Program-made: the position numbers and the translations under genes
Shown here: positions 6,599 through 56,922 of the stretch, piece after piece
Layout of the letters: every line of letters starts with the position of its first letter
Position numbering within the stretch: the first letter of the stretch is position 1
Notes under the pieces: generated by a model
What the model saw: only the letters and a program-made list of their open reading frames with translations
What the model was told of the DNA's origin: nothing
Database searches by the model: none
Source: an uncultured Chloroflexia bacterium
Lineage (GTDB): Bacteria; Chloroflexota; Chloroflexia; Thermomicrobiales; UBA6265
Assembly: GCA_963751075.1 (NCBI GenBank)
Contig: CAVVTE010000003.1
Span: 12,510-76,509 of the forward strand
Length of the DNA stretch: 64,000 nucleotides
Direction: 5' to 3'

Positions 6599-7686
6599 GC
6601 CGCGCTCCCTTCCTCAACAGCCACGACCTTCCGTGGTCGCCAGCCGGCGCCGTCAGGGGCGGCTTCGCCGGTGCCAAGCCACTCGCCCGCGGTGTCATAA
6701 GCTCGGATCGGACCCGCGGCGCCGCGATCGTCGGGGATCGTCGAGCCCTGCCGCCAACGGCGAGCCGCATCCGAGTCGAGAACGAGCGCCGGCCACTCCT
6801 GGACCGGAATGTCCGGATGGAGGGCGACCCAGGGCCATGCCCAGGGAAGCTCTATCCGGCTCAGCTCGTCCATCGTGAACGCCTGGCAGAGATGGAACGG
6901 CCCGGCGCGCATGCGGAGCAGATCAGAGAGGTAGGCGCCGGTTCCCAGCGCCGCACCCAGATCTCGCGCCAGGGCGCGAATGTAGGTCCCTTTGGAGCAA
7001 TCGACGAGCAAGGTTGCGGTCGGCAGATCCCATTCCAGCAGTTCCAGGCAGTGGAAGATCACCGGTCGCGGTGCGCGGGCGATCTCTTCCCCGCGGCGCG
7101 CCAGGTCGTAGAGTTTTTGACCACCGACCTTGATCGCCGCGTGCATCGGAGGAATCTGCTCGTGGGCGCCGCGAAACGACGCCAGGGTCGCCTCGATCGC
7201 GTCCGCGGTCAGCCCGGTTGCATCTGCCGTGCCGGTGACGCGGCCTTCGCTATCGTGGCTGTCGGTTTCGACCCCAAACGTCACCTCGGCGAGGTAGGTC
7301 TTGGAGGCGTCGTTAAGGAACTCCAGGGTCTTCGTCGCCATGCCCACCGCGAGAGGCAGGACGCCGGTCGCGGCCGGATCGAGCGTGCCGGCATGCCCAA
7401 TATGCTTTTGGCCGAGGAGACGGCGTGCGCGTGCGACGACGTCGAAACTGGTCCACCCGGCCGGTTTGTCGATCACGAGGTAGCCGTGGAGCGAGGGTGG
7501 CGAAGAGGGGAGAGGGGAGTCGCTGCGCTCAGGAGGGAGCGATTCGCTTAGGGAAGGACGGCCGCCAGCGGCCTTAAGGGGGAGAGGAGCACGAGGAATG
7601 TAGGGCTCGTCGTCCTCGCCCCCTTTGCCCCCCTCGAGCGCAGCGACCCCCCTTGAGCGCAGCGACCCCCCTTTGTCCCCCTTCAC
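6595..7686 (-). CDS. truB: tRNA pseudouridine(55) synthase with a repeat-derived N-terminal extension
   Basis: IDKPAGWTSFDVV, GHAGTLDPAATGVLP, CSKGTYIRALARDLG. Confidence 0.95.
   Translation of the reverse strand: MKGDKGGSLRSRGVAALEGGKGGEDDEPYIPRAPLPLKAAGGRPSLSESLPPERSDSPLPSSPPSLHGYLVIDKPAGWTSFDVVARARRLLGQKHIGHAGTLDPAATGVLPLAVGMATKTLEFLNDASKTYLAEVTFGVETDSHDSEGRVTGTADATGLTADAIEATLASFRGAHEQIPPMHAAIKVGGQKLYDLARRGEEIARAPRPVIFHCLELLEWDLPTATLLVDCSKGTYIRALARDLGAALGTGAYLSDLLRMRAGPFHLCQAFTMDELSRIELPWAWPWVALHPDIPVQEWPALVLDSDAARRWRQGSTIPDDRGAAGPIRAYDTAGEWLGTGEAAPDGAGWRPRKVVAVEEGSAA
7514..7671. repeat. Inverted-repeat hairpin element (GGGGTCGCT(G/T)CGCTC family) inside the truB 5' end
   Basis: Left arm GGGGAGTCGCTGCGCTCAGG 7514-7553; right arm 2x GAGCGCAGCGACCCC 7628-7671. 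Confidence 0.75.
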
Positions 7687-11553: not shown

Positions 11554-12894
11554 TTACACTCCCTCGGCCGCCGCGGCAACCGCCACCGGCTCGTCCTCGA
11601 GCGACAGTGGCGCGCCGCTCTCGAAATCGAAGCGGTGCCGCAGGTCGCGGTTGTAGAAAACTTCCAGCGCGGTTCCGGCCAGATCGACGTCGACACTCAT
11701 GCCCACCAGGTCGGGAGACAGCGGTCCAAACGTCTTATCGCGCACCGAAATGGTGCCGTCGGCGCGGACCAGGCGGGGCTGGCGTCCCTGCCAGGAGAAG
11801 TCGTCGCTCTGGGAGTCGGCCATCGCTGCCCGCGCCTGTCGCAGCAGCTCTTCGTCCATCTCCTGCAGCGCCGCCGGGTCTTTGATATCGATCCGCCAGC
11901 CGGTGAGCTTGTACGCCAGGCGGGCGTTCTGGCCCTCCTTGCCGATCGCCAGCGACATCTGGTCGGTCGGCACGATGACCGTGGCGACCTTGTTCGGCTC
12001 GTCCAGAGTGACCGATGACGGCTTGGCCGGCGACAGGGCATTGGCGATGAACTGCGCCGTGTCGGGCGACCACTCGATGACGTCGATCTTCTCTCCGTAG
12101 AGCTCATTGACGATGTTCTGGATGCGGACGCCGCGCACACCGACACAGGCGCCGACGGGGTCGACCTTCTCCTGCCGCGCGGCGACGGCGACCTTGGAGC
12201 GGAGACCCGGCTCCCGGGCGACCTCCATGATCTCGACCGCGCCGGAGAAGATCTCCGGAACTTCCTGCTCGAACAACCGGCGAATGAGCCCCGGGTGGGA
12301 GCGGGAGACAATCAGCTGCGGACCGCGCTGATCCTTGTTTACCTCGACCAGGAGCACCTTGACCCGCTGACCGGGCCGATAGCGCTCATTCGGGACCTGC
12401 TCCCGGGACGGCATCACCGCCTCGGCTTTCCCCAATTCGACGATGACCGCCCGCGGGTCAGCACGCTGGACGACGCCATTCAGCACCTCGCCCTGCTTGT
12501 CGTGGAAGTCTTCGTAGACCGAGTCGCGCTCGTAGTCCCGAATACGCTGCAGGACGACCTGCTTCACCGTTTGGGCGGCGATGCGGCCGAAGTTCTCCGG
12601 AGTGCGCTCGATGCGGATCTCATCGCCCACTCGCGGGCTGGCCGAGTATGTCATGGCCTCAGCCAGCGAGATCTGGCTCAGAGGGTCGTCGATCTCGTCG
12701 ACCACCGCCTTGACGGCGAAGATGCGCATGGCGCCGGTGGTCTGGTCGATATCGACGGAGACCTCCTCCTCGGTGTTCGCCATCTTCTTGTAGACGCTCT
12801 TCAGCGCGTGCTCGACCGACGAGAGCACCGCCTCTTTGGGGATCCCCCGTTCGGCGGCGATCTGGGCGATTGCCGTATAGAAGTCGCTCTTCAT
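11554..12894 (-). CDS. nusA: Transcription termination/antitermination factor NusA
   Basis: [57 protein letters not shown]; AAAGGAG SD before ATG 12894. Confidence 0.97.
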
Positions 12895-26425: not shown

Positions 26426-26517
26426 CCGCAACAGGGTGAAAGCATCAACCTGCGGATACGCCCCGAAGTGGTCAGCGCCAAGTATTGCGATCGAACACAG
26501 AATTCAGGAGACCGACC

Positions 26518-27525
26518 ATGACCCTCCGCTTCGACACGTCGTTCTGTCGCCTGGTCGGTATCGACCTGCCGATCGTGCAAGCGCCGATCGGCGGCATCAC
26601 GACGCCGGCGCTCGCGGCTGCGGTCAGCGAGGCCGGGGGGCTCGGCATGCTCTCCATCACCTGGCGCGATGCGGACGCACTGCGAATCCTCCTGCGCGAG
26701 ACCAGCGCCCTGACGGCCAAACCGTTCGCCGTCAATCTGGTGCTGGAGTGGGATCCCGCCGAGCGGTTGGCGATCGCGCTGGAGGAGGGGGTGCGCATCG
26801 TCTCGTTTTTCTGGGGCGATCCCGCGCCGTGGGTCGATCAAATTCATGCCGCCGGCGGGATCGTGTTGCACACGGTCGCTAGTGCGGAAGAAGCGCGCCG
26901 CGTGGCCGATGCAGGCGTCGACGCCGTCGTGGCCCAGGGCTGGGAAGCGGGTGGCCACGTCTGGGGCGAGGTCTCGACCCTGGCGCTCGTCCCACGTGTG
27001 GTCGATGCGGTCACTCCGCTGCCGGTCGTAGCCGCCGGAGGTATCGCGGACGGCCGCGGACTCGCCGCCGTGCTCGCGCTCGGCGCCGGCGCCGCCTGGA
27101 TGGGCACGCGCTTCCTGCTCGCGGCGGAAGCGGCGACGCATCCCGTCTATCGGGAGGCAGTGATCGCCGCCGGCGAGACTGCAACACCTCACAGCACGCT
27201 CTTCGACGTCGGCTGGCCAAACGCGCCGCTGCGCGCACTCCGTAACGCCACCTGGGAGGCATGGCGTGCCGCCGGCGAGCCGCCGGTCGGCGCCCGTCCC
27301 GGCGAAGGCGAGATCGTGGCCACCGGGGAGGACGGCCGCGCCATCGCGCGTTACAGCAACGACGCCCCGGTGGTCGGCGCCTCCGGCGACGTCGCGGCGA
27401 TGGCCCTCTACGCCGGTCAGGGAGTGGGCCTGGTCCAGCGCATCCAGCCCGCCGGAGAGATCGTGCGCGAGGTGGCCGAGGAAGCTGCCCGGGTGCTTGC
27501 GGCGACGAGGGAGGCGCTTCGCTGA
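26518..27525 (+). CDS. Nitronate monooxygenase (NMO/FabK-like)
   Basis: PIVQAP.GG, VAQGWEAGGH, AAGGIADGRG, MGTRF, YAGQGVG. Confidence 0.92.
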   Translation: MTLRFDTSFCRLVGIDLPIVQAPIGGITTPALAAAVSEAGGLGMLSITWRDADALRILLRETSALTAKPFAVNLVLEWDPAERLAIALEEGVRIVSFFWGDPAPWVDQIHAAGGIVLHTVASAEEARRVADAGVDAVVAQGWEAGGHVWGEVSTLALVPRVVDAVTPLPVVAAGGIADGRGLAAVLALGAGAAWMGTRFLLAAEAATHPVYREAVIAAGETATPHSTLFDVGWPNAPLRALRNATWEAWRAAGEPPVGARPGEGEIVATGEDGRAIARYSNDAPVVGASGDVAAMALYAGQGVGLVQRIQPAGEIVREVAEEAARVLAATREALR

Positions 27526-27715
27526 GGGGGTACCAGCCGCTATGCGGCTTCAGGGGGTGTCGCTGCGCTCAGGGAGTGAAGGGGGAGAGGACGAGAGGGG
27601 TTAGTCAGATCGGGACAAAAAGCCCCCTTCACCTGTCTCCGACGGGCCGGGTACCCGCGTAGCGGGTGGCGGGTTGGGGGATGAGGGCAAACGCCGCCTC
27701 ACCTATCATGCCCCG

Positions 27716-52246: not shown

Positions 52247-54000
52247 TCACGATGTTCTCAGCCGCGCTGTTTTCTCCTCATCCACCGCGTAATGCTCCGG
52301 CAGTCTGACCAACTGATCCGGCGTGCCTAGGTATCGGATCACGACCCCGTAATCGCGCTCAGCGCTTTCCAAAGACACGTAGCCGGCAACCACATCGGCC
52401 AGGACCGCCTCGACCGGACGATTGAACGGATCGCCGTAGCCGGCGCCGCCCGGCGGGGCCAGCAGGACAGTTTGCCCTGGCTCTAACCCAATGACCGTTT
52501 TTGGTTTGAGCGGACGGCCGTCGGCGGCGAACTCGCCCATGCGCGCCCGGTCCACCTCCCGCGAACCCCTGCGCCGCGAACTTCGTGCGGTCGATCATCG
52601 CCGAGACGCTCCAGGGACCGTCGCCGCGATACCAGTACTCCGTCGCCTGCCCCAGACCACCGCGGGTCTCCCCGGCGCCACCGGAGTCGGTGCGCAACTC
52701 GCGTCGCGATTGCACCAGGGCGGAGAGGCTCTCGATCACCTCGGCCGGCACCCCGGCCACGCCGGAGGGGAAACCGGTCGTGCTCAGACCGTCCTTGGTG
52801 GCGCGGGCTCCCGTGCCCCCGACCTGGAAGATCGCGGTCATGAAGGGCTCGTCGTTCTCCGGATGTGCCCCACGCCAGACGCTGAGCCAGATCGGATCGG
52901 CGCCGCCCGCCAGTAGCCGCTCCGGCAATGCCTGGGCCAGCGCGCCGAAGATGGCGCTGGGGACGAAGTGTCCGACCAGGTGCCGCGCCGCCACCGCCGC
53001 CGGCTCGACGCAGTTGAGGATCGAGCCGAGCGGCGCGGTAACGTGCACCGGCCGGAAGGCCCCTTCGTTGTGCGGCACGTCGGGGGCGACCGCCGCCTTC
53101 AGGGCAAAGGAGGCGTAGCCGTGCGTGTAGTTCAGCACGACGTTGATGCCTCGCCCGCTCTGCGGCGACGACCCGGCGAAGTCGATGTCGATCTCATCCC
53201 CACGGACCGTGACGGTCGCCACGATCACGATCGGCTCCTCGAACCCATCGCTCCAGACTTCATGCTGGTAGACCCCGTCGGGGAGGGAGCGGATCGCCTC
53301 GCGCAGGGCGCGCTCGGAGCGGGCGATGATCTCGTCGGCCAGGGGATCGACGCTCTCCAGCCCGAACTCGTCCATCATCGTCAACAGTGCCCGCCCCCCG
53401 ACGTCGTTGCACGAGGCCTGGGCGTAGAGATCGCCGACCGTCTCGTCCGGGAGGCGGACATTGGCGCGGATGATCTTCAGCAGCTCGTGGTTCGGCTCGC
53501 CGCGGTCGAAGAGCTTCGTCACCGGGACGCGCAGCCCCTCCTCGTAGATCTCGTGCGCCTCCCCGGAGAAGACCTGACCGCCAATGTCCGCCGCGTGGCA
53601 GAGGTTGCCGAAGTAGCCAACGATCCGCCCCTCGCGGAAGACCGGGGTGACGACCGTGAAGTCGTTGAGCTGCCCCGAGGTCATCCAGGGGTCGTTGGTG
53701 ATCAGCACGTCGCCGGGACCCAGCGTCTCGGGGGGATAGGCGGCGAGGAGGTGACGCACGCCGGTGGCCATCGGGTTGATGTGCCCCGGGGTGCCGGTCA
53801 GCGACTGCGCCATCATCTGACCGCGGGTGTCGAACACGCCGCAGGCGAGGTCCTGCGATTCGCGCACGACGGTGCTGAAGGCGGTGCGCATCAGCGCCGC
53901 CTGCTGCTCGTTGGCGACCGAGAGGAGCCGGTTCCAGAGGACTTCCAGCGTCACCGGATCGAGCGGGGTCGCTTCGCTCGAGGGGAGAAGGGGGAGACAC
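52247..54000 (-). CDS. Hydantoinase B / 5-oxoprolinase subunit (frameshift ~52550)
   Basis: LEVLWNRL, RTAFS..VRESQD, GTPGHIN, NDPW, H.ADIGG, EEGL, DSGGAG..RGGLG, GG.GYGDP. Confidence 0.92.
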
Positions 54001-54014
54001 TTCGCTCAGGGGGG
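53965..54014. repeat. Left inverted arm flanking the four-helix-bundle gene
   Basis: GGGGTCGCTTCGCTCGAGGGG...AGACACTTCGCTCAGGGGG. Confidence 0.8.
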
Positions 54015-54018
54015 AGAA

Positions 54019-54431
54019 TCACCGGTTGGCCTCAGTTTCTGTAGATCCACGTAGGCTGCGTAGCAGGCCACGGATCAGGCGACGAACTTCCATCATCTGA
54101 GCCGTCAGCCTTCCGCTCGTATCAGCGTCGCGTAGCCAAGCTGTTCAGCGATCAGCACTTGGTTTCGAGCTCGCATAGCGAACCGTACGCGACAGACACA
54201 TGATGAGCGAACTCACGTGGCCCAGTTCGGCCATGGCCTTCCGCCAGATTCGATGGGATCGAGACCGCAGCTCGTCGTACTTGCGAGGTGAGTCCGTAGA
54301 GCTCCTCACGCGACCAATTCCCGTCGCTCGGTAGACCGCGGTCACTAGGGCCATTGCCTTCTCCAGGCTATCAGTCCTGAAATCCGCTCTTCCGACCCGC
54401 ACCATTCTCCGCCCACCCGTTCGGCGCCCAT
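54019..54431 (-). CDS. Four-helix-bundle protein (23S rRNA intervening-sequence / Avd-like family), frameshifted
   Basis: Joined frames give LIAW.[59 protein letters not shown].ELET....AEQLGY. Confidence 0.85.
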
Positions 54432-56681
54432 CAGTCCGTCAGCCACGACCGCGCTCTTCCCTCTCCCTTTCCCCCTAAGCGAAGCGTCTCCCCTGAGCGA
54501 AGCGACCCCCTCACCCCCCTGCGCAACAACGAGATTCCCTTGATCATCGACCGACACCGTCGCGCCGGGGCCGATGACGGTGGTCGACTCCCGCTCCTCG
54601 ACGATGGCGGGTCCGGCGAATGTGGCGCCCGGTCCCAGCCGGTAGCGGTCGTAGACCGCAACGTCGGTCATTCCGCCCTGCTCTGACACGTACGCCCGGC
54701 GCGTGCCCTTGCATGCTGATGCGGCGTCGCCGGTTGCCTCCGGCGCGGTCGAGAGCCGCAGATCGGGCCGCGGGCCGGACGAAACGACCCGCCAGGTGAT
54801 CGCTTCCACCGGCACCGGCGGACCGAGCCGGCCGTAGAGACGGAGATACTCGGTCTCGAACGCCTGCCGGATCGCCGGAACGCCCGCCGGGGTGAGTGGC
54901 CCCGGCGGCAGCGGCACTCGCACCTCGTGTCCCTGCCCGACATACCGCATCTCGGCTGCCCGGCGGTGGGTCACATCCCGTCCCCGCAGCCCGGCCGAGG
55001 CCAGCAGCATCGTGCCCTCCTCTTCCATCTCCGCCATGAGCCCGTTGACCCGGGCCCAGTCGAGGGTGTCGAGGCGGCCGGGGAAGGAGCGGGTGAAATC
55101 GAAAGCGACCGGCGCGGCCAGGAAGCCGATGGCGCTCATCACTCCGGCGCCGGAGGGGACGATCAGGCGCGGCGAGCCGAGTGCCGCCGCGATGCGATAG
55201 CCATGCACCGGCCCGGCGCCGCCGAAAGCGAAGACCGGCAGCCGCCGCGGATCGCCGCCTCGTTCCAGGGTGTGCACCCGGGCCGCGCCGGCCATGGTCT
55301 CGTTGACGATCTGGTGGATTCCCCAGGCCGCCTCCTCGATGCTCAATCCGAGCGGATCGGCCACGTCGCGGCGGATCGCCTCCCGCGCCGCGTCGACGTC
55401 GAGGGACATCGCGCCGCCGAGAAAGAAGCCGGGATCGAGATAGCCCAGGACCAGATCGGCATCGGTGACCGTCGGCCGCTCGCCGCCACGACCGTAGCAG
55501 GCCGGGCCGGGGTCGGCGCCCGCGGAATCGGGCCCGACCTTGAGCAGGCCTAATGCATCGATGCGGGCGATCGATCCTCCCCCGGCGCCAATCTCGATCA
55601 TCTCGATCACAGGCAGATTGATCGGCAGCCCGGAGCCCTTTTTGAAGCGATAGCGACGGTCGACCTCGAAGCCGTGCGCCAGCAACGGCTCGCCGCGGGC
55701 GATCACTGCGAACTTGGCGGTGGTGCCCCCCATATCAAAGGAGAGCAGATCCTCGTAGCCGGCGGCGGCGCCAAAGGCCGCGGCGGCGAGCGCGCCCCCG
55801 GCCGGACCGCTCTCCAGCAGCCGCACCGGGAAGCGGGCGGCCGTCTCGACCGTCGCCAGCGCGCCGGAGGAGATCAGCATCAGCAACGCGCCGTGGAAAC
55901 CCGCCCGCCCCAGTCGCTCTTCCAGATCCTGCAGATAGCGCTCGACCCGGGCCTGCACGTAGACATTGGCCACGGTCGTCGAGGTCCGCTCGTACTCTCG
56001 GATCTCCGGCACGACGTCGGAGGAGATGGACACCCGGATATCAGGTGCGGCCCGTTTCACGGCCTCCCGCGCACGCCGCTCTAGCTCGGGATTGGCGAAG
56101 CTGTTGAGGAAGGCGATGGCGATTGCCTCGATCCCGGCGGCGTCCAACTCCCGGGCCAGGCGCTCGACGTACTCCTCGTCCAGATCGTGCCCTGGCAGCG
56201 TCGAGCCGTCGGCGAGGGTGCGCCCCGGCACGCCGAAGCGGAGATAGCGCGGCACGAGGGGGCGCGGCATCTCCAATTGCAGGTCGTAGAGGTCGTAACG
56301 ATGCTCGCGGCCGATCTCGAGCGAATCACGGAAGCCCTCAGTGGCAAGGAGCGCCGTCGGCGCCCCCTTGCGCTCGATCAGCGCGTTGGTGACCAGGGTC
56401 GTGCCATGGATGATCTGACCGAGGGCCGACATCGGCGCGTCCGCGGACGCCAGTGTCTCCTCCAGCCCGGTCTCGATCGCCTGCGAGGGATCATCCGGCG
56501 TAGTGAGCGTCTTCCCAACGACGAACGCCCCAGTGGCGTCGTCATAGACGACCAGATCAGTAAAGGTGCCACCGATGTCGACGCCGGCGCGGAGGGAGTG
56601 GTGAGTCGAGGAGTCGGGGAGCCGAGGAGTCGAGGAGGGGTGGAACGCAGGTTGGGCCAATGACTGAAGATTTGCCTTCAA
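54431..56681 (-). CDS. Hydantoinase A / 5-oxoprolinase subunit (ends approximate)
   Basis: GVDIGGTFTD, HGTTL.TNA, REYERT.T, ESGPAGG, DMGGTT, IGAGGGSIA, SAGA.PGPACYGRGG, FGGAGP.H, MRY.GQ. Confidence 0.95.
54471..54510. repeat. Right inverted arm flanking the four-helix-bundle gene (within the hydantoinase A 3' end)
   Basis: CCCCCTAAGCGAAGCGTCT-CCCCTGAGCGAAGCGACCCC, reverse complement of the left arm. Confidence 0.8.
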
Positions 56682-56922
56682 CCCTCTCCCGATCGAGCGC
56701 CCTCACTCCCAACCCGCCACCCGGAGGTACCCGGCCCGTCGAGCCGGGAGAGGAGGCTTTCTCCGCCACCCGGCTTGACTCCCTTCTCCCCACTCCGAGG
56801 GGAGAAGGGTTGGGGATGAGGGGCGTTCCGGAGAGACGCGCTGCTGATAATCGGAAGGCCGACTTCAATCCTCCTTCTCGACTCCTACTTGCCGTCTTGC
56901 CGTCTTGCCGTCTTGCCGTCTC
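56603..56922. repeat. Nested repeat element: 8-mer arms enclosing a CCCTCACTCCCAACCC...GGGTTGGGGATGAGGG palindrome
   Basis: (GAGTCGAG)n 56603-56640; inner palindrome 56700-56822; CTCGACTCC and (TTGCCGTC)x4 56877-56920. Confidence 0.8.

Follow-up and report, generated by a model that had tools for sequence, protein, structure and literature searches.

The closest described relatives of the element considered here are the intervening sequences (IVS) of bacterial 23S rRNA genes, some of which carry an open reading frame (ORF) for an S23p protein. The element itself is an insert between the hydantoinase genes hyuA and hyuB on the minus strand of contig CAVVTE010000003.1 (GenBank assembly GCA_963751075.1) from an uncultured Chloroflexia bacterium; we analyzed forward-strand positions 12,510 to 76,509, and this whole stretch of 64,000 nucleotides is the window to which plain coordinates below refer. 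The origin and purpose of rRNA IVS and of their S23p ORF have been open questions since about 1990. In Coxiella burnetii the 23S IVS is an insert of 428 to 444 nt with a 28-bp terminal inverted-repeat stem and three tandem GACAGAT heptamers, variable in number among strains, upstream of a decaying S23p ORF; RNase III from Coxiella and from E. coli cleaves it mid-stem in vitro, and the older ideas cited in the same account are that IVS are remnants of transposition or mobile elements whose ORF aids mobility (PMC4990558). The family to which S23p belongs, PF05635, is the Pfam family found most often beside the reverse transcriptases of diversity-generating retroelements (DGR) (PMC10053308). Arrays of heptamers whose function is unknown also occur in intergenic regions, among them the short tandemly repeated repetitive (STRR) sequences of cyanobacteria and the TAACTGA repeats of Beggiatoaceae, cyanobacteria, and Bacteroidetes (PMC4679880).

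With moderate confidence, we read the hyuA/hyuB insert as an IVS-type, transposase-less cassette that is co-transcribed with its operon and probably cut from the operon transcript by RNase III. In the widespread class to which it belongs, a PF05635 gene stands between two inverted arrays of short repeats that are complementary to each other; the S23p-carrying 23S rRNA IVS appears to be the one member of that class described before. An original prediction, made from the letters of this DNA, had proposed a cassette of this kind. Its IVS-family gene with arms, the arms of paralogs, and the variable insertion site all stood up, whereas its argument from strand-specific G-U pairs and its view of gene-free hairpins as excision scars did not.

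The insert between hyuA and hyuB

Read along the minus strand, the locus consists of hyuA, a 5′ arm, a leader, a four-helix-bundle (4HB) gene, a 3′ arm, and hyuB, with the cassette in the same orientation as its neighbors. The 4HB gene (54019..54405, minus strand; final stop TGA at 54021-54019) was recognized in a six-frame search by both PF05635 (67.3 bits, cut-off 33.8; E 5.9e-18; profile positions 22-80 of 106, with one internal TGA) and TIGR02436 (65.5 bits, cut-off 24), so the family membership that had been proposed for it holds above the curated cut-offs of both models. The single-frame match covers only profile positions 22-80, and the remainder was recovered in other frames: following the homology to the closest paralog (C18:204304-204639) by tblastn with paralogs takes at least four frame changes, and a Pfam scan of the mis-framed piece 54145-54324 gave no match. 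A profile of 18 relatives, searched against PDB sequences, matched the S23p pentamer of Xanthomonas campestris (2gsc_A, E 3.7e-37) and 2rld_A (8.6e-13); only these two S23p-type entries were found, and no Avd. A 4HB fold and a homopentameric assembly are predicted for the protein encoded here on the strength of sequence similarity.

The arms consist of two nested pairs of units on the minus strand. The outer units (GGGGTCGCTTCGCTCAGGGG, 54490..54509, in the 5′ arm and CCCTCGAGCGAAGCGACCCC, 53965..53984, in the 3′ arm; pair I5) are 20 nt long and 90% complementary, and the inner units (GGGGAGACGCTTCGCTTAGGGGG, 54471..54493, and CCCCCTGAGCGAAGTGTCTCCCC, 53991..54013; pair I4) are 23 nt long and 91% complementary. 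Within the inner pair, the minus-strand segments AGACGCUUCGCUUAGGGGG and CCCCCUGAGCGAAGUGUCU pair at 19 of 19 positions, of which 17 are Watson-Crick and 2 are G-U pairs; both G-U pairs become A-C mismatches when read on the plus strand. A 4HB gene between hydantoinase A and B, enclosed by inverted arms with exactly this inner pairing and with outer arms of about 20 bp, is what had been claimed, and the family models, the arm pairs, and a direct reading of the sequence agree on it. Together the two nested pairs (23 and 20 nt) provide the terminal inverted-repeat stem of about 20 bp or more by which an IVS is recognized. Each arm is built of two units of about 18 to 28 nt (direct repeats D1 and D3) and not of an array of 7- to 8-nt units. 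Folding bore out the proposed structure on both strands: the 601-nt region reaches −280.5 kcal/mol on the minus strand (z −7.4; none of 20 shuffles as good) and −239.9 kcal/mol on the plus strand (z −4.4), far more stable than shuffled sequence, and the arms close the whole insert in the predicted folds of both strands. An Rfam search of the window gave no family match.

The boundaries of the insert are close to the flanking genes. The hyuA ORF (listed at 54540..56681, minus strand; Pfam Hydant_A_N, Hydantoinase_A, and Hydant_A_C) stays open in this assembly across the 5′ arm as far as a stop at 54345, and the HyuA proteins of relatives end in ...GNLVVEV(E/Q)EPHAR followed by the stop codon. 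The left boundary of the insert is a G-run containing a TGA (GGGGGGTGAGGGGG, 54511..54527, minus strand; defined from the sequence and repeat I7), and if the assembly had that run (54516-54521) one base too short, this TGA would be where hyuA stops; in the paralogs the 5′ arm begins immediately past the upstream stop codon. A purine-rich leader (54406..54470, minus strand), which resembles that of the paralog on contig C18, connects the 5′ arm with the 4HB coding region. At the other side, the outer 3′ unit ends 10 nt ahead of the GTG at 53954 that is the first possible start of hyuB (52359..53954, minus strand; Pfam 491 bits) and is taken as its start. This hyuB is without an N-terminal extension present in relatives, and its C-terminal part lies in another frame (ORF 52247-52555). 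Near its 3′ end, comparison with the related genome G001 shows one extra base and, 80 nt on, one missing base, which could be an assembly error or real damage. Upstream of hyuA, the translation of 56557-56868 (...PNPSPLGVGRR...GGGLGVRAL...) suggests another G-rich repeat element.

Independent reads bear on the interrupted frames. We compared the locus with four soil and rhizosphere metagenomic DNA runs (X1-X4), which yielded short contigs of relatives only. A contig from X4 has a single extra base after each of positions 54322, 54361, and 54374, the three inferred N-terminal frameshift sites, and each extra base restores the expected 4HB peptide. Over the 5′ arm and leader (54375-54545), a 285-nt contig from X2 is nearly identical to the window, from which 1 substitution and 11 inserted letters set it apart. 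The differences listed for the hyuA and hyuB portions of these contigs include no indels; none of the contigs from the four runs bridges the cassette or joins informatively across it, and the part of it left uncovered by X1 and X3 carries no meaning. Genome G001, which is assembled in few, long contigs, also has frameshifts in its 4HB copy and in a neighboring gene. The apparent pseudogene state of the 4HB gene, the exact base counts of the arms, and the continuation of the hyuA frame into the arm may in part be assembly error; alternatively, the interrupted frames reflect very recent decay.

Searches for enzymes that might move the element covered two families. In this genome, which is 87.5% complete, there is no match to the Y1 transposases of PF01797, to which the transposases associated with repetitive extragenic palindromes (REP-associated tyrosine transposases, RAYT) belong, and none to the reverse transcriptases of PF00078, in keeping with the prediction of a transposase-less element as far as these two families go. 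Two known settings were rejected for the locus on this basis: a DGR, as this 87.5% complete genome has no PF00078 match and the neighbors of the 4HB gene are hyuA and hyuB, and a REP/RAYT system, as PF01797 was not found.

PF05635 genes and their arms in other genomes

The genome holds six PF05635 matches, all intergenic. Reading of the flanks revealed inverted arms at four paralogs, each with its own type of repeat unit: GCTATCAGC on contig C19, GGTGGCGGG on C10, GTCGGGAA on C4, and GGGG/CGCTTCGC, as at the hyuA/hyuB locus, on C18. A fifth paralog, on C13, is truncated and has no convincing arms. The expectation that other paralogs would be enclosed in the same way was thus borne out for four paralogs by flank reading, and four of the six matches had an alignment score above 25 in the test described below (L004 scored 17 and L006 scored 23). 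Copy number varies among 41 related genomes from 0 to 7, with at least one copy in 27 of them and none in four complete genomes of genus g13. At nearly all of the 34 loci found in this order, the printed flanks place the gene in a short spacer between same-strand genes, with an array of 6- to 9-nt units upstream and a reverse-complement array just past the 4HB stop codon.

To extend the comparison, we scanned GTDB species genomes with an alignment (A1) of 18 4HB proteins; 594 of 600 candidate stretches encode 4HB relatives, and the best 80 loci, from more than 12 phyla by record title, were taken as a broad set. In the flank test, 230 nt upstream of the Pfam match were aligned to the reverse complement of 230 nt around and after the stop codon. 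It was applied to 110 loci, comprising the 34 order loci and 76 of the 80 broad loci (L067, L124, L133, and L143 were dropped for short flanks), with a threshold of 25, the 95th percentile of a cross-locus control of 657 pairs (mean, 17.9; 99th percentile, 38; maximum, 67). Arms scored above this threshold at 89 of the 110 loci. The order set had a median of 38, with 29 of 34 loci (85%) above 25, 79% above 30, and 16 above 38; these include loci from the unpublished genomes G012, G021, and G036 (L056, L042, and L040), without which 26 of 31 exceed 25. The broad set had a median of 35, with 60 of 76 loci (79%) above 25, 66% above 30, and 32 above 38. By comparison, 1,000 random sites of the same geometry in this genome had a mean of 18.8 and a maximum of 34 (2.1% above 25, 0.2% above 30, and 0% above 38), and the hyuA/hyuB locus itself scored 40.

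Arm units are mostly 7 to 8 nt long (e.g., TCAGCNN, GAGTATT, GTCGGCA, AGGTGTC, and GGGAGTAA), and their sequence differs at nearly every locus, with the 4HB gene as the constant partner across phyla. The arms hug the ORF: the distance from the stop codon to the 3′ arm is often no more than about 20 nt, and 15 to 130 nt separate the end of the 5′ arm from the Pfam match. Rfam detected rRNA at none of the 80 broad loci, and settings other than rRNA are thus the rule in this sample, although many of the loci derive from metagenome-assembled genomes, in which rRNA operons are frequently missing. At a few loci, stable RNA genes adjoin the cassette, namely, a transfer-messenger RNA gene 185 nt upstream (L081), a 6S RNA gene about 130 nt downstream (L086), and a tRNA gene downstream (L101). 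Where the flanking genes point in the same direction, by a crude call from open frames, the 4HB gene is co-directional with them at 25 of 25 order loci and 44 of 48 broad loci (69 of 73 together), and therefore the gene rides in host transcription units. The layout of gene plus arms is general, recurring around PF05635 in many phyla, and is apparently undescribed outside rRNA; literature searches, with subscription journals and supplementary files outside their scope, returned no account of hairpin-bracketed 4HB genes in other settings.

Orthologous junctions differ in what they contain. Among 13 congeners with an ortholog of the hyuA/hyuB junction, nine (one of them the unpublished G012) have a plain junction of 58 to 127 nt in which the hyuA stop overlaps the hyuB start (ATGCCCGCTGA), so the comparison with relatives that had been proposed as a check did find unoccupied sites. 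The nearest relative, G001, whose HyuB N-terminus is 99 to 100% identical, has at the same boundaries a 183-nt hairpin-only element from the arm family of this locus. A different palindrome (GTCATTCTGAG..GAAGAATCTCG paired with its complement) occupies the junction in G009 and G008 (L009 and L013), and a third, with a 24-of-25 inverted repeat (GTAGGGGCGCTGCTTGCTGCGCCCG), occupies it in G006 (L011). A second site, that of the C18 paralog, holds a cassette in G000, G007, G004, and G001 and is without one in G009, which has a 46-nt spacer, and in G008, where a 143-nt hairpin unrelated to it is found. Presence at some orthologous junctions and absence from others show that the cassette is mobile or was so until recently.

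Several features of these junctions stand beside this result. Hairpin insertions have a hot spot at the hyuA/hyuB junction. On contig G001:C11 (L008), hyuA, the 183-nt hairpin, and hyuB form a single open frame of 1293 aa, which may be a hydantoinase A-B fusion with a hairpin-encoded linker or an assembly artifact. In the G009 spacer at the C18 site (L146, G009:C124:6380-6620), a lone GGGTGAC/GGGTGAT run resembles a 5′ arm without a partner and may be a footprint or merely a purine-rich ribosome-binding region. In G025, from another family of the order (L029), the hyuA/hyuB junction has three GTGACAA units and one GTGACGA directly after hyuA, followed by a small membrane ORF that L032 and L033 also have and, beyond it, by another inverted repeat.

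Where cassettes share a site, their two arms change together. Four sets of cassettes (A to D) occupy orthologous sites in different congeners. In set C, where 84 of 104 aa are identical, the units are GGGTGAT in one genome and GGTGTCA in the other; in set D (79 of 104 aa identical) they are GGTGGC and GGGTGAT. Counts of 8-mers common to the 5′ arm and the reverse-complemented 3′ arm are 9 and 13 within the loci of set C and 6 and 9 within those of set D, compared with 3 and 0 (set C) and 0 and 0 (set D) between loci. The arms of G004 contain two unit variants, each an exact match to its partner. Orthologous cassettes with different but self-complementary units indicate that complementarity is kept while the sequence turns over.

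Proposed processing from RNA and rival explanations

If the insert is an IVS-type cassette, it would be transcribed within the operon RNA, its arms would form an RNA duplex of about 40 bp, and RNase III would cut this duplex and release the cassette RNA from the polycistronic transcript without ligation. From the established properties of RNase III, a double-stranded stem of that length in an operon transcript would be expected to serve as its substrate. We propose this enzyme because the rRNA IVS of Coxiella, Leptospira, and Salmonella have been found experimentally to be cut and because an RNase III gene (rnc) is present in the genome (C5:45809-46486, 219.7 bits).

We give a minor but real chance to the strongest rival, in which the arms are a mobile palindrome acting at the DNA level, comparable to miniature inverted-repeat transposable elements (MITEs), REP sequences, or Rickettsia palindromic elements (RPE). 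The 4HB gene would be a passenger that landed or was captured in the loop, an enzyme acting in trans would use a cruciform or single-stranded DNA hairpin, and pairing in RNA would be incidental. What speaks for it is the abundance of arms without a gene. In this genus the arms at hyuA/hyuB come from a G-run/GCGNAGC hairpin repeat family that is also present in this genome in about 40 hairpin-only copies: a profile of 10 such copies found 41 distinct loci (nhmmer), of which 24 reach 110 nt or more in length and just 2 hold a 4HB gene. The number of matches varies widely between congeners, from about 28, 22, 14, and 14 in some to 2 to 5 in others. Common to the copies are outer units of the G-run/GCGNAGC type, an inner stem-loop (GGGGGAGAGGACGACG...), and a side hairpin (GGCCGC..GCGGCC). 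The GCGNAGC of the arm unit (e.g., 53970-53979 and 54495-54504), in which A, C, T, and G all occur at N, presumably corresponds to the very stable d(GCGNAGC) mini-hairpin, and in several copies the center of the unit folds as a local hairpin rather than pairing with the opposite arm. The composite arms of set B, in which an outer arm of the hairpin family encloses an inner arm of heptamer type, also fit a palindrome that spreads on its own.

Two members of the family lie elsewhere in the window. One hairpin-only copy (7520..7682, corresponding to C3:20029-20191; nhmmer E 1.4e-23) is situated between two minus-strand ORFs. The other, at 27506..27600 on the plus strand, is the "truB" hairpin of the original prediction and is a truncated copy, with two G-type units, the side hairpin, and only a short 3′ complement; it begins at the stop codon of the ORF 26485-27525. 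The prediction had taken such hairpins for what a departing cassette leaves behind. As a family of 41 loci with a shared inner stem-loop, found in either orientation and also in frame inside ORFs, they look like independently spreading palindromes and not like excision scars. The inner ends of hairpin-only copies resemble those of the C18 cassette, so the hairpin-only form could be a deletion derivative that then multiplied.

Among 11 strictly defined hairpin-only copies the neighboring genes are co-directional at 8, convergent at 2, and divergent at 1, and the minimum free energy favored the strand sense to the neighbors in 3 copies and the antisense strand in 4. For 18 of the 24 long hairpin-only copies, the RNAalifold consensus has only 15 pairs, of which 3 show compensatory change, a count that is little informative for such recent paralogs. 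In an alignment of 18 copies in their own polarity (A2), one-sided changes in the outer stem are of G-U type in 26 cells and of A-C type in 6; this excess possibly reflects single-stranded DNA or a mutation bias, in copies that are related by descent and lie in both orientations.

Against a palindrome moving by itself stand several of the results above. A single element with fixed ends cannot explain locus-specific arms around a constant 4HB gene across phyla, no PF01797 or PF00078 enzyme was found in the genome (87.5% complete), and the co-directionality at 69 of 73 loci would be needless for a passenger with its own promoter. Moreover, the rRNA IVS relatives are processed as RNA (PMC4990558).

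Several results weigh against excision from RNA, and some of them favor the palindrome directly. At 7 co-directional sites, the polarity of hairpin-only copies relative to their neighbors is sense at 4 and antisense at 3. In G004 (L150, C2:2700-3720) and G001 (L148, C2:100940-101900), a related G-run/C-run hairpin of about 100 nt lies in frame within the ORF downstream of the C18-site cassette and adds about 30 residues (LDGGGRGEGGDG...PLPPFPPSPLQAPP) absent from G000 (L002); hairpins inside ORFs fit a DNA-level element better. If selection on the sense RNA maintained pairing, mismatches of G-U type would be expected to exceed those of A-C type, but arm pairing lacks strand bias. The 89 arm pairs contain 123 transition mismatches of the type that gives G-U in the sense strand and 104 of the antisense type (binomial P = 0.23), and the aligned-arm duplex is more stable as sense RNA at 44 loci, as antisense RNA at 41, and tied at 4 (Wilcoxon P = 0.52). 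With no G-U excess across arms, the two G-U pairs at hyuA/hyuB carry little weight, and the strand-specific argument that the original prediction had built on them falls away. A further 224 arm mismatches are transversions, so that many arms pair imperfectly. In the absence of a strand signal, the arms have a symmetric look at the level of DNA, as would be expected had they been made as perfect complements or homogenized between the two sides. Of the tested loci, 21 of 110 have no arm above threshold. At hyuA/hyuB, insertion was not clean: about 100 nt of ancestral junction sequence gave way to the element instead of being split by it, and no target duplication is visible there. Finally, base-level assembly errors are likely at the locus.

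A second rival, which we think decidedly improbable, makes the arms a fixed expression device of the 4HB gene, a 5′-3′ panhandle that stabilizes or silences its message or insulates it from the operon, inherited vertically and lost by deletion. Such a device would account for arms that tightly bracket the ORF, and the sites shared by several congeners (sets A to D and the C18 site) fit vertical descent. It has also in its favor that the 5′ arm is richer in G than in C at 71 of 89 loci (C exceeds G at 15, and the two are equal at 3); this bias is uninformative about the strand of the gene because a hairpin running from a G-arm to a C-arm reads alike on both strands. The bias may serve to keep an unpaired 5′ arm from being rich in C, or to keep Shine-Dalgarno-like runs from preceding the downstream gene. 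Vertical inheritance fits poorly with 0 to 7 copies among close relatives and with a hyuA/hyuB junction that is plain in most congeners. The existence of the arm family without any gene and the occurrence of close 4HB relatives in nearly all candidate stretches, from many phyla, likewise count against such a device. That the arms are a chance by-product of low-complexity G/C runs or a misassembly of repeats is scarcely credible and largely refuted by controls: the assembly does have signs of indel errors, G001 has frameshifts in neighboring genes, and the arm motif is repetitive in the genome, yet 0 of 20 shuffles fold as well, only 2.1% of random sites exceed 25 against a score of 40 at the locus, the same architecture recurs in independent assemblies of other species, and independent metagenome contigs cover the 5′ arm and leader.

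We retain a probably RNA-processed, IVS-type cassette as the preferred reading of the insert. A bolder generalization, tentative and rather doubtful as it stands, is that 4HB (S23p) cassettes form one universal class of selfish elements that survive by excision from host RNA, with rRNA IVS as the special case noticed first and the intergenic heptamer arrays of cyanobacteria, Beggiatoaceae, Bacteroidota, and others as their arms or footprints. The Avd-like pentamer would take part in copying or inserting the element, and the arms would be remade or homogenized at each event, which would explain both the differing yet self-complementary units and the lack of a strand-specific G-U excess. Whatever the fate of this generalization, a unit of gene plus arms that is common outside rRNA, co-directional in operons of many phyla, and altered in both arms together makes the IVS question comparative and, because many carriers are cultivable, experimentally tractable. 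It also provides a candidate explanation for intergenic heptamer arrays, supplies a natural module by which operon transcripts may be divided at set positions, and bears on the origin of Avd-type proteins. Carriers that can be cultivated include Bacteroides thetaiotaomicron, whose genome, used as a control, matched PF05635, as well as Adhaeretor mobilis HG15A2 (L101, arm score 62), Bosea sp. OK403 (L126), Sphingobacterium alkalisoli (L137), and Maribacter sp. (L089).

Comparison with known systems

Each of the known systems shares part of its makeup with the hyuA/hyuB cassette. The Avd protein of DGR is a related four-helix-bundle pentamer, but the 4HB gene here has no adjacent pair of template and variable repeats and lies in a genome without a PF00078 match. 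REP sequences and bacterial interspersed mosaic elements (BIMEs) with their RAYT, together with MITEs, resemble the hairpin-only family as dispersed, G+C-rich, intergenic palindromes of 130 to 170 nt that are present in many copies and vary in number between relatives. They differ from it in that no Y1/RAYT gene was found in this genome, no target duplication was seen, and two copies here have a gene in the loop; 4HB cassettes in general, moreover, have locus-specific arms and not family-wide terminal repeats. The inverted ends typical of a MITE are present here, with no transposase linked to the element.

RPE are palindromic repeats that lie in frame in protein-coding genes and are translated as an extra peptide. 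The in-frame hairpins of G004 and G001, compared with G000, and the 1293-aa hyuA-hairpin-hyuB frame of G001 invite this comparison, although lineage and sequences are different and RPE are not known to be linked to 4HB genes. Intergenic heptamer arrays share with the arms of 4HB loci their 7-nt units and their position in intergenic spacers (compare the units TCAGCNN, GAGTATT, and GTCGGCA). They differ in that the part of the published description used here deals with direct repeat sets, without a link to 4HB genes or to paired inverted arrays (PMC4679880).

The rRNA IVS with an S23p ORF, known from Leptospira, Coxiella burnetii, Xanthomonas, and Brucella, come closest. The cassette here is in the spacer of a protein-coding operon instead of helix 9, 25, or 45 of 23S rRNA, its arms consist not of heptamers but of two units, each about 20 nt long, that belong to a dispersed hairpin family, and excision by RNase III, shown for the rRNA elements, would apply to it by analogy. 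In common are a PF05635 protein and an inverted-repeat stem around its ORF. Tandem heptamers in the 5′ part of the IVS (GACAGAT three times in Coxiella) have their counterpart in the true 7- to 8-nt arrays of most other 4HB loci. Both have an ORF that is frequently in decay, occur sporadically, and come without a transposase (PMC4990558). In its stem, tandem heptamers, and S23p ORF, the Coxiella 23S IVS described there has the same layout as the cassettes of this class (PMC4990558), which supports the kinship with rRNA IVS that had been proposed for the insert between hyuA and hyuB.

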